Shown: positions 31,018 to 35,123 of the stretch, piece after piece
How positions within the stretch are numbered: position 1 is the stretch's first letter
How the letters are laid out: each line of letters begins with the position of its first letter
Assembly: GCA_022703565.1 (NCBI GenBank)
Contig: JAKLDK010000001.1
Coordinates: 8,017 to 72,016 of the forward strand
Direction: 5' to 3'
Origin: Candidatus Omnitrophota bacterium
GTDB taxonomy: Bacteria; Omnitrophota; Gorgyraeia; Zapsychrales; Zapsychraceae
DNA: 64,000 nucleotides
Notes under the pieces: generated by a model
Told to the model about the DNA's origin: nothing
The model's database searches: none
Seen by the model: only the letters and a program-made list of their open reading frames with translations
Position numbers and translations under genes: made by a program

Positions 31018-31166
31018 TCTTGGTATGGGCATTATGGTAAGGTTACAGGGATATATCGCAAGATGTATCCCTAAATTATTTTGGCTTTTTAAGGTAAAAT
31101 AAGATACAATTGTTATCTAATAATATAAGTATTAATTTATATTCCTAATTTTTAAAGGAGATTGCT

Positions 31167-32820: not shown

Positions 32821-33219
32821 ATGCAAAACGACATTGAATTAAAAAACATGGACTTTGAAATTAGTTTTTATGAGAAAATAATTTCATTTAGCCCGAATTT
32901 TACTGAGGCCCTAATAGCTTTAGGTGATTTGTATACTAAAAAAGGCTTGTATTTAAAAGGCCTTACAATCGACCAGAAATTAGCGTCGCTTTGTCCGGAT
33001 GATCCGATTGTTTTGTATAATTTGGGCTGCAGCTATTCGTTATTAAACGAGGTTGATAAAGCGCTTTTGGTTATAAAAGAGGCGATTAAAATAGGTTATG
33101 ATGATTTTGAATTCCTTTCAAAAGACGAAGATTTGGGTAATTTACAAAAAGACGAACGATTTGTCCAATACTTCCTTTCCTTGAAGAAAAAAAGAACTGT
33201 TAAGCAAAAGAAGACATGA
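32821..33219 (+). CDS. TPR-repeat protein
   Basis: TPR signatures (ALIALGDLYTKKGLY, LYNLGCSYSLLNEVDKAL). Confidence 0.6.
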   Translation: MQNDIELKNMDFEISFYEKIISFSPNFTEALIALGDLYTKKGLYLKGLTIDQKLASLCPDDPIVLYNLGCSYSLLNEVDKALLVIKEAIKIGYDDFEFLSKDEDLGNLQKDERFVQYFLSLKKKRTVKQKKT

Positions 33220-35123
33220 GTTCTATTTCCAAATCCGAAGATGTTAGCGTAAAATTTGTGGCCAAAGGTATTTATGACGAGAAAAGACAATATATCCGCC
33301 TTTCCAGTGTCTTTCCGGTAGCTTTTCGTATAATTCTTCCTGATAAAAAGAAAAACGAGATGAATTGGCAGCAGGGATATACCTGTAATGTCAGTAACGG
33401 TGGAATCTGCGTTGAAACAAATGCGGTTGATAATATTACTGAGAAATTATTAAATGCGGCTGAAAATTATGTTGATATCCGGCTTAGCATTCCTCTAAGG
33501 CAAGCTCCGATTGAAGCAAGTGCTAAGCTTATATGGAGCAGGTGTGATATAGTACACGATACAAAAAAGTATTTCTTCGGGTTAAAGTTTGAAGAAATTT
33601 CTCCACGGGATTTAAGAAAAGTTGTTTGGCATGCCAAAGTGCATAAATATGCGGCTCGAGCGTCATTTTTATTAGGAATAATATTGGTGATTAGTTTATC
33701 TGCCAGTTTCTTATATAATCAAAAATTGCGGTACGAAAATAAGATGATAGTATCAGCCTTGGTTAATCTAGAGGAGAAGACGGGCCGGATGGCCCAGAGT
33801 TACGAGGTGACACAAAAGCAAGCTTTAGACAAAGAAAAAGAGTTACAGTCGGTAAGCGAAAGCGATTTAACCAGCAAGAAAAGATTAGAGAATGAATATG
33901 AAGATTTAGTAAAAAGATTAAATCAGCAGGCAGATAGCATGGATATCCTGGATAGGAAAAAGCAGGGCTTGCAAAAAACAATTTCGCAAAAAATGTATTT
34001 GTGGTTAAAAAATCACCAAAGTTATACGACGGGATTGGTCTTGAGCTTTGAAGGTAAAGATAAGATTGTTAAAGACTGGTCCTTTATTTATGACCAAGCT
34101 TTGGCGGTTTGCGTCTTTCTACTTTATGATGATACCAAAAGTGCTCGGGATATTTTGAATTTCTTTACGCGTGAATTAACCAACGATTTTAACGGATTTA
34201 ATAATGCGTTCTTTTACGATTCTGGCGATATCTCGGAATTTACCGTTCATTGCGGGCCGAATATTTGGCTGGGGATTGCAGCCTTGCAGTATGTGAAAAA
34301 AACATCGGATTACTATTACCTTGATTTAGCGAAAAGAATTGCCGATTGGCTTATTGAAATTCAAGAGGGTGATCCCGAAGGTGGGCTTAAAGGTGGCCCA
34401 ACTGTTTTTTGGTTTTCAACCGAGCATAATTTAGACGCGTATGCTTTTTTAAATATGCTTTATAATGAAACAGAAGAAGAGAAATACGGAATTGCCCGGG
34501 ATAAAATAAAGTCCTGGCTTAACAATCATGCCATGGTTCCGCATGACAGAGATTACAGCTCACCGCCTATAAATCGAGGCCGAGGCGATGCCACAATTGC
34601 AACCGATACTTTTGCCTGGGCTTTGGCTTCATTGGGCCCGCAGGAGTTGAAAGATATGGGAATGGACCCGGAAGAGATAATGAAGTTTGCCGAGGAGAAT
34701 TGCAGTGTTGCGACGAATTATGTCCGGCCCAGCGGAATAGTTGTGAATGTTAAAGGTTTTGATTTCTCAAAAGTGGCGAATATGCCCCGTGGCGGGCTTG
34801 TTTCTCCGGAATGGACATCGCAAATGATTGTGTCATTTAGGATGCTGAGCCGTTATTTTAAGAAAAACGGAGATGATTTAAAAGCAGAATATTATGCCCA
34901 AAAAGCAAATATTTATTTAAATGAATTAAATAAAATAGTTATTTCTAGTGCGTCGCCGACGGGTCGTGGCGAAGGATGCCTTCCTTATGCGACCAAGGAA
35001 AATGCTGATACCGGGCATGGTTGGAATACTCCCAACGGGAATAATACTTGCTCGATTGCCGGAACAGCTTATATGGTAATGGCGATAAAAGATTTCAATC
35101 CGCTCTCGTTAGAGCAAAATTAA
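33216..35123 (+). CDS. PilZ domain - TM - coiled coil - (alpha/alpha)6-barrel-like domain protein
   Basis: N-terminal PilZ motifs RQYIR and NVSNGGICV; a TM helix (ASFLLGIILVISL); a coiled coil; and a C-terminal ~400 aa with a W/G/A-rich six-hairpin glycosidase/epimerase-like pattern (GPNIWLGIAALQY, DQALAV). Confidence 0.55.
   Translation: MSSISKSEDVSVKFVAKGIYDEKRQYIRLSSVFPVAFRIILPDKKKNEMNWQQGYTCNVSNGGICVETNAVDNITEKLLNAAENYVDIRLSIPLRQAPIEASAKLIWSRCDIVHDTKKYFFGLKFEEISPRDLRKVVWHAKVHKYAARASFLLGIILVISLSASFLYNQKLRYENKMIVSALVNLEEKTGRMAQSYEVTQKQALDKEKELQSVSESDLTSKKRLENEYEDLVKRLNQQADSMDILDRKKQGLQKTISQKMYLWLKNHQSYTTGLVLSFEGKDKIVKDWSFIYDQALAVCVFLLYDDTKSARDILNFFTRELTNDFNGFNNAFFYDSGDISEFTVHCGPNIWLGIAALQYVKKTSDYYYLDLAKRIADWLIEIQEGDPEGGLKGGPTVFWFSTEHNLDAYAFLNMLYNETEEEKYGIARDKIKSWLNNHAMVPHDRDYSSPPINRGRGDATIATDTFAWALASLGPQELKDMGMDPEEIMKFAEENCSVATNYVRPSGIVVNVKGFDFSKVANMPRGGLVSPEWTSQMIVSFRMLSRYFKKNGDDLKAEYYAQKANIYLNELNKIVISSASPTGRGEGCLPYATKENADTGHGWNTPNGNNTCSIAGTAYMVMAIKDFNPLSLEQN

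Follow-up and report, generated by a model that had tools for sequence, protein, structure and literature searches.

The known targets of PilZ domains include synthases, such as BcsA, and co-polymerases, such as Alg44, which are controlled from the cytoplasmic side of the membrane. The Lap system, in turn, depends on LapD, an inside-out c-di-GMP receptor that controls an enzymatic event in the periplasm. The Omnitrophota have unusual host-associated lifestyles and, to our knowledge, no cultured members that have been studied well; proteins presumably underlying their host-dependent or predatory way of life are the secreted and giant multidomain ones.

Here, we describe a gene from a Candidatus Omnitrophota bacterium (GCA_022703565.1), located in a 64,000-nt stretch of contig JAKLDK010000001.1 (positions 8,017-72,016, forward strand) that is referred to below as the window. 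Its product, the PilZ-barrel protein, consists of a PilZ domain, a transmembrane (TM) helix, an α-hairpin stalk and an (α/α)6 barrel, in this order. The analysis establishes which domains it contains, its fold, the logic of its topology, how well it is conserved and how widely it is distributed. With moderate confidence, we propose that it acts as an inside-out c-di-GMP receptor controlling periplasmic glycan processing by a new six-hairpin barrel.

33216..35123, + strand: PilZ-barrel gene, complete, 635 aa plus stop (list of open reading frames)

Results

PilZ domain, transmembrane helix and stalk

Full-length homologues of the PilZ-barrel protein share 40-62% identity with the query, and its AF2 model has a pLDDT of 88. 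The N-terminal part, the TM segment and the stalk comprise the following features:

33279..33623, + strand: canonical PilZ domain, aa 22-136 (PF07238; family profile against 5vx6; AF2)
33285..33299, + strand: RxxxR c-di-GMP-binding motif, R24-Q-Y-I-R28 (read from the sequence)
33387..33404, + strand: (D/N)xSxxG c-di-GMP-binding motif, N58-V-S-N-G-G63 (read from the sequence)
33657..33716, + strand: single TM helix, aa 148-167 (Kyte-Doolittle peak 2.16)
33717..33980, + strand: antiparallel α-helical hairpin stalk of ~90 residues, predicted to be periplasmic (AF2 helices)

The query matches Pfam family PF07238 over residues 22-136 with a score of 32.5 bits (gathering cut-off 22.5). All 40 aligned homologues match the family as well (best E-value 1.5e-12), and the family profile aligns with the PilZ protein YpfA/MotI (5vx6) over both c-di-GMP-binding motifs. 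In the AF2 model, β-strands at residues 34-40, 52-59, 63-68, 85-90, 99-113 and 116-127 form a six-stranded β-barrel (aa 34-127), followed from residue 130 by a long C-terminal helix, the arrangement that defines canonical-type PilZ domains (bioRxiv 10.1101/814665). Among the 40 homologues, R24 and R28 are each kept in 39, N/D58 and G63 in all and S60 in 36. Of 118 full-length homologues, 101 satisfy a strict regular expression for the motifs and 17 fail it. Judged by these sequence features, the domain is a putative canonical c-di-GMP receptor.

The C-terminal helix of the PilZ domain (aa 130-147) forms part of an unbroken helix (aa 130-212) that continues through the TM segment into the first arm of the stalk. 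One TM segment is found in 117 of the 118 homologues and an N-terminal signal peptide in none. The N-terminal flank of this segment is the more basic one in 71 homologues and the C-terminal flank in 24, with averages of 3.97 and 3.13 K+R residues, respectively (n = 118). This positive-inside bias is modest and predicts a cytoplasmic PilZ domain and a periplasmic barrel. The stalk arms (~aa 168-212 and ~218-255) are connected by a tip at ~aa 213-217 and modelled with a pLDDT of ~85-96. Indels in the stalk are confined to a single position, following residue 219, where homologues are on average 28 residues longer.

Fold and family assignment of the C-terminal barrel

The remainder of the protein contains the barrel and, within it, the segment that proved informative for its classification:

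33981..35120, + strand: (α/α)6 barrel, aa 256-635, with a β-hairpin insert at aa 497-515; outside all Pfam and NCBIfam families
34254..34268, + strand: G347-P348-N-I-W351 at the N-terminus of inner helix α4 (profile-to-PDB alignments with 6u4z, 4c1s, 4mu9 and 6shd)

The model shows the hallmarks of the six-hairpin superfamily, with twelve helices arranged in six hairpins as a double barrel and long loops on one face, and its top structural match is the glycosidase MmpH (PDB 7qsj). Two cysteines, C496 and C588, are invariant and could form a disulfide. An earlier note on this DNA had described a PilZ domain with complete RxxxR and (D/N)xSxGG motifs, followed by a single TM helix, a coiled coil and a C-terminal (alpha/alpha)6 barrel. 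All four structural calls are borne out: the PilZ domain by its Pfam score and the 90-100% conservation of its motifs (n = 40), the TM helix by its hydropathy peak and its recurrence in the homologues, the coiled coil by a helical stalk that takes the form of an α-hairpin in the AF2 model, and the barrel by the agreement between model and fold match.

The query sequence gave no match covering the barrel in Pfam, NCBIfam or the PDB. Coiled-coil matches dominated the PDB search with the full-length profile, so barrel-only profiles (A2, A3) were built, which identified GH76 as the sole solved relative detectable at the sequence level. The barrel family comprises ~1,700 sequence clusters. The Pfam family for GH76, PF03663, does not match the query at E ≤ 1; it matches 21 of 40 homologues weakly (best E-value 3.5e-6) and reaches 26.6 bits (cut-off 25.9) over a partial region of one distant relative. 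The family profile aligns with GH76 structures at an E-value of 3.9e-5 over helices 3-7 only.

In GH76 enzymes, an Asp-Asp pair provides the nucleophile and the acid/base. The alignments place the corresponding D-D-N-V-W segment (6u4z, 4c1s, 4mu9) opposite G347-P348-N-I-W351, such that an invariant Gly-Pro takes the place of the catalytic pair. G347 and W351 are conserved in 98% and 90%, respectively, of the distant relatives, a set of 58 non-PilZ barrel domains that underlies all such values given below. Because Gly-Pro replaces the catalytic Asp-Asp, we reject membership in GH76. The earlier note had recommended structure prediction for residues 250-635; the AF2 model yields the (α/α)6 barrel, but no existing GH or epimerase family fits. 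The best reading is that the barrel represents a branch of the six-hairpin glycosidases that has not been described before. Given that this large family is missed by Pfam and NCBIfam and has a catalytic-site signature unlike that of GH76, it is a candidate new CAZy family.

Candidate active site

Conservation across the barrel family highlights four segments, all located at or leading into the N-termini of inner helices:

34089..34094, + strand: Y292-D293, N-terminus of inner helix α2, candidate sugar-binding/catalytic residues (conservation; AF2 helix boundaries)
34422..34436, + strand: E403-H-N405-L-D407, N-terminus of inner helix α6, with E403 as candidate catalytic carboxylate (conservation)
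34587..34607, + strand: D458-ATIAT-D464, loop into inner helix α8, conserved carboxylates (conservation)
34803..34814, + strand: S530-P-E532-W533, N-terminus of inner helix α10, with E532 as candidate catalytic base (conservation)

Distant relatives share Y292 (98%), D293 (97%), E403 (98%), N405 (79%), D407 (78%), D458 (91%), D464 (100%) and E532 (98%), and E403, D464 and E532 are invariant in alignment A3. The five carboxylates D293, E403, D458, D464 and E532, together with aromatic residues, are 90-100% conserved even when distant relatives from secreted and giant proteins are included, and they are found at the inner-helix mouths, on the face where barrels of this type usually have their catalytic site. 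Kept near-invariant across differing architectures, these carboxylates are more suggestive of an active site than of a binding surface. E532 is suggested, by relative position only, to be the equivalent of Glu262, the catalytic base of MmpH, whose counterpart in G1d is Glu628 (PMC9883506). By position, E532, E403 and D293, the latter in the αA-αB region (compare Asp47/Asp50 of MmpH), are candidates for inverting-type carboxylates.

Some relatives of the barrel carry signal peptides, and its fusion partners in other proteins are CBM11/CBM30 modules, a GH2-like domain and regions resembling GT2 or glucan synthases. Together with the conserved catalytic face, these secreted relatives and fusion partners lend indirect support to a carbohydrate-active role. 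The proposal of the earlier note that the barrel modifies glycans is supported in part by this evidence.

The fusion partners also bear on the possibility that the barrel is not a polymer glycosidase but an epimerase or isomerase of the AGE type, or a GH88/GH105-type unsaturated-uronyl hydrolase, with a sugar or oligosaccharide of the periplasm as its substrate. We regard this reading as quite improbable, as the partners suggest polymer substrates and MmpH, the best structural match, is a glycosidase. AGE enzymes, moreover, depend on two catalytic His residues. No His is found among the positions conserved in at least 60% of the 58 distant relatives, and H404 and H601 are conserved in the PilZ-fused clade only, secreted relatives having V, N or S in place of H404. 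An AGE-type epimerase (PF07221) therefore carries low weight.

Distribution and genomic neighbourhood

The PilZ-barrel fusion is present in 447 species-representative genomes, and its best 80 matches all come from Omnitrophota. The gene occupies a fixed place in a backbone of housekeeping genes, its neighbours over 80 loci encoding AsnC, an aminotransferase, a TPR protein, YjbQ, PfkB and Era, or RNase T and HhH-GPD proteins. It behaves as a vertically inherited gene of a housekeeping region. A scan of the window for promoters and terminators gave counts not above the shuffled expectation; a terminator-like hairpin (31047-31072) and a promoter-like site (31081-31110) precede the AsnC gene.

In the 64-kb window and the 80 related loci, the PilZ-barrel gene has no linked gene for a polysaccharide synthase, GGDEF or EAL protein, and no HD-GYP gene was found in the window, where the lone "GGDEF" string lies inside PurH and is due to chance. 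The earlier note had advised looking for such GGDEF/EAL and synthase genes and had envisaged the processing of an exopolysaccharide or cell-wall polymer. With vertical inheritance and a housekeeping setting, an accessory exopolysaccharide role is not indicated.

The gene immediately upstream encodes a small TPR protein:

32821..33219, + strand: 132-aa TPR protein, predicted to lack a signal peptide (Pfam TPR; NCBIfam TPR_END_plus)

Its stop codon and the PilZ-barrel start codon overlap within 4 nt (ATGA), an arrangement suggestive of translational coupling between the two genes. This apparently coupled, cytoplasmic partner would fit a scheme in which signalling runs from the outside in, with the barrel sensing periplasmic glycans and altering partner binding by the PilZ domain, whose C-terminal helix is known to serve as a protein-interaction surface (bioRxiv 10.1101/814665). 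Alternatively, the two ends could be decoupled and the PilZ domain be a non-binding structural remnant, in keeping with the 17 of 118 homologues without the strict motif. Either version appears very unlikely to us. Both motifs are kept at 90-100% in the alignment of 40 homologues, and a survey of PilZ domains states that those forming part of fusions have invariably preserved their ability to bind c-di-GMP (bioRxiv 10.1101/814665). Free secreted barrel proteins, moreover, keep the same conserved pocket, which argues for a barrel function independent of PilZ.

All 26 closer-clade loci have the TPR gene upstream of the fusion, and in 11 of them the two are separated by an M48 peptidase gene, which then directly precedes the fusion. 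In 8 of the 26, the next gene downstream of the fusion belongs to the Omp85 family, and a stand-alone paralogue adjoins an AsmA/YhdP-like gene. These recurrent neighbours point weakly to the cell envelope. On two longer contigs, stand-alone secreted relatives have an AsmA-like neighbour and carA/carB housekeeping genes around them, which give no clue to the substrate.

Such neighbours would also suit an Alg44-like scaffold, that is, a structural subunit that depends on c-di-GMP and belongs to a secretion or assembly machine spanning the envelope, in which PilZ licenses assembly, the α-hairpin reaches an outer-membrane partner, as in membrane-fusion proteins (MFPs), and the barrel binds or guides a glycan or partner protein without catalysis. 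The protein shares the Alg44 layout of an N-terminal PilZ domain, a single TM helix and a periplasmic helical element, and its hairpin varies in length at the tip, as MFP hairpins do. We nevertheless consider this alternative unlikely: Pfam detects no HlyD/MFP domain in the query or 40 homologues, the near-invariant carboxylates of the catalytic face resemble an active site more than a binding surface, and neither the window nor the large clade at ~40% identity has the M48 and Omp85-family neighbours. The window contains no M48 or Omp85-M1 gene elsewhere either, and no second barrel copy.

Discussion

Proposed mechanism and significance

We thus favour an inside-out c-di-GMP receptor that controls glycan processing in the periplasm, and we infer c-di-GMP binding, catalysis, the mode of coupling and the nature of the substrate from the features described above. 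The protein would be a bitopic inner-membrane protein whose cytoplasmic N-terminal PilZ domain binds c-di-GMP. From the C-terminal helix of this domain, an unbroken helix would run through the membrane into the first periplasmic hairpin arm, and the hairpin would then turn back, holding the barrel near the outer face of the inner membrane. There, the barrel would most likely bind a glycan and cleave or remodel it by means of E403 and E532, with D293, D458 and D464 contributing, in a chemistry that would not be of the GH76 type but nearer to that of MmpH and the inverting enzymes of clan GH-L, which employ two carboxylates. Binding of c-di-GMP may alter the packing of the PilZ helix or the oligomeric state, and the rigid helix may relay this change to the periplasmic side, such that envelope glycan processing is switched on or off.

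It is tempting to go further and view the polypeptide as a c-di-GMP switch directly gating a periplasmic glycoside hydrolase of a family new to CAZy, which remodels an envelope or surface glycan, is vertically inherited across the Omnitrophota and shares its catalytic module with secreted and giant proteins. This fuller version remains tentative, and we would not expect all of its elements to hold together. A PilZ domain connected by one TM helix to a periplasmic glycosidase-like domain would, in itself, place glycan processing outside the cytoplasm under the direct control of a second messenger within a single protein and provide a compact system to study the transfer of c-di-GMP signals across a membrane. 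Through this fusion, which occurs across the phylum, an intracellular signal may govern glycan processing outside the cell membrane. As the fusion is kept in hundreds of Omnitrophota species, its substrate could reveal core aspects of their envelope biology.

Comparison with known systems

The barrel profile also matches proteins of 3,000-7,900 aa. A GH76-like fold has been described inside an Archaeovorin-type giant Omnitrophota protein (bioRxiv 10.1101/2023.11.21.568195); such domains possibly belong to the same barrel superfamily, and the matched proteins may be of the same kind and origin. The giant proteins differ from the PilZ-barrel protein in being huge, multidomain and presumably secreted, and in lacking the PilZ-TM module.

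Of the described enzymes, the GH76 α-1,6-mannanases (6u4z, 4c1s, BcGH76 and Salegentibacter GH76A) carry Asp-Asp, the pair whose mutation yields the inactive variants 6shm and 6y8f, where the barrel has Gly347-Pro348, whereas the conserved carboxylates of the barrel family sit elsewhere. Members of clan GH-L (GH15 glucoamylase, glucodextranase and isomaltose glucohydrolase; GH125) have no detectable sequence similarity to the barrel, and the residue equivalence between them is one that we presume from position and GH15 motifs. MmpH (7qsj), a methylmannose polysaccharide endo-α-1,4-mannosidase, is only ~10% identical, with no sequence-level match, and its Asp47/Asp50 and Glu262 are compared with D293 and E532 by relative position only. 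Unlike the PilZ-barrel protein, it is soluble, cytoplasmic and actinobacterial and lacks a PilZ domain, TM helix and stalk.

Alg44, the alginate co-polymerase of Pseudomonas aeruginosa, likewise combines a cytoplasmic canonical PilZ domain and its long C-terminal helix with a single TM helix and periplasmic helical elements, and it links cytoplasmic c-di-GMP to a periplasm-facing polysaccharide function, as predicted for the PilZ-barrel protein. However, the periplasmic part of Alg44 is HlyD/MFP-like rather than an α-hairpin with a glycosidase-like (α/α)6 barrel, and Alg44 is encoded in the alginate operon beside the synthase Alg8, whereas the PilZ-barrel gene has no adjacent synthase in 80 loci. 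In LapD of Pseudomonas fluorescens, c-di-GMP binding in the cytoplasm is similarly relayed across the inner membrane to an enzymatic event in the periplasm. LapD, however, uses a degenerate EAL domain, two TM helices and a HAMP domain to regulate a separate protease, LapG, by sequestering it, whereas the PilZ-barrel protein unites a PilZ domain and the presumed enzyme on one single-pass polypeptide.

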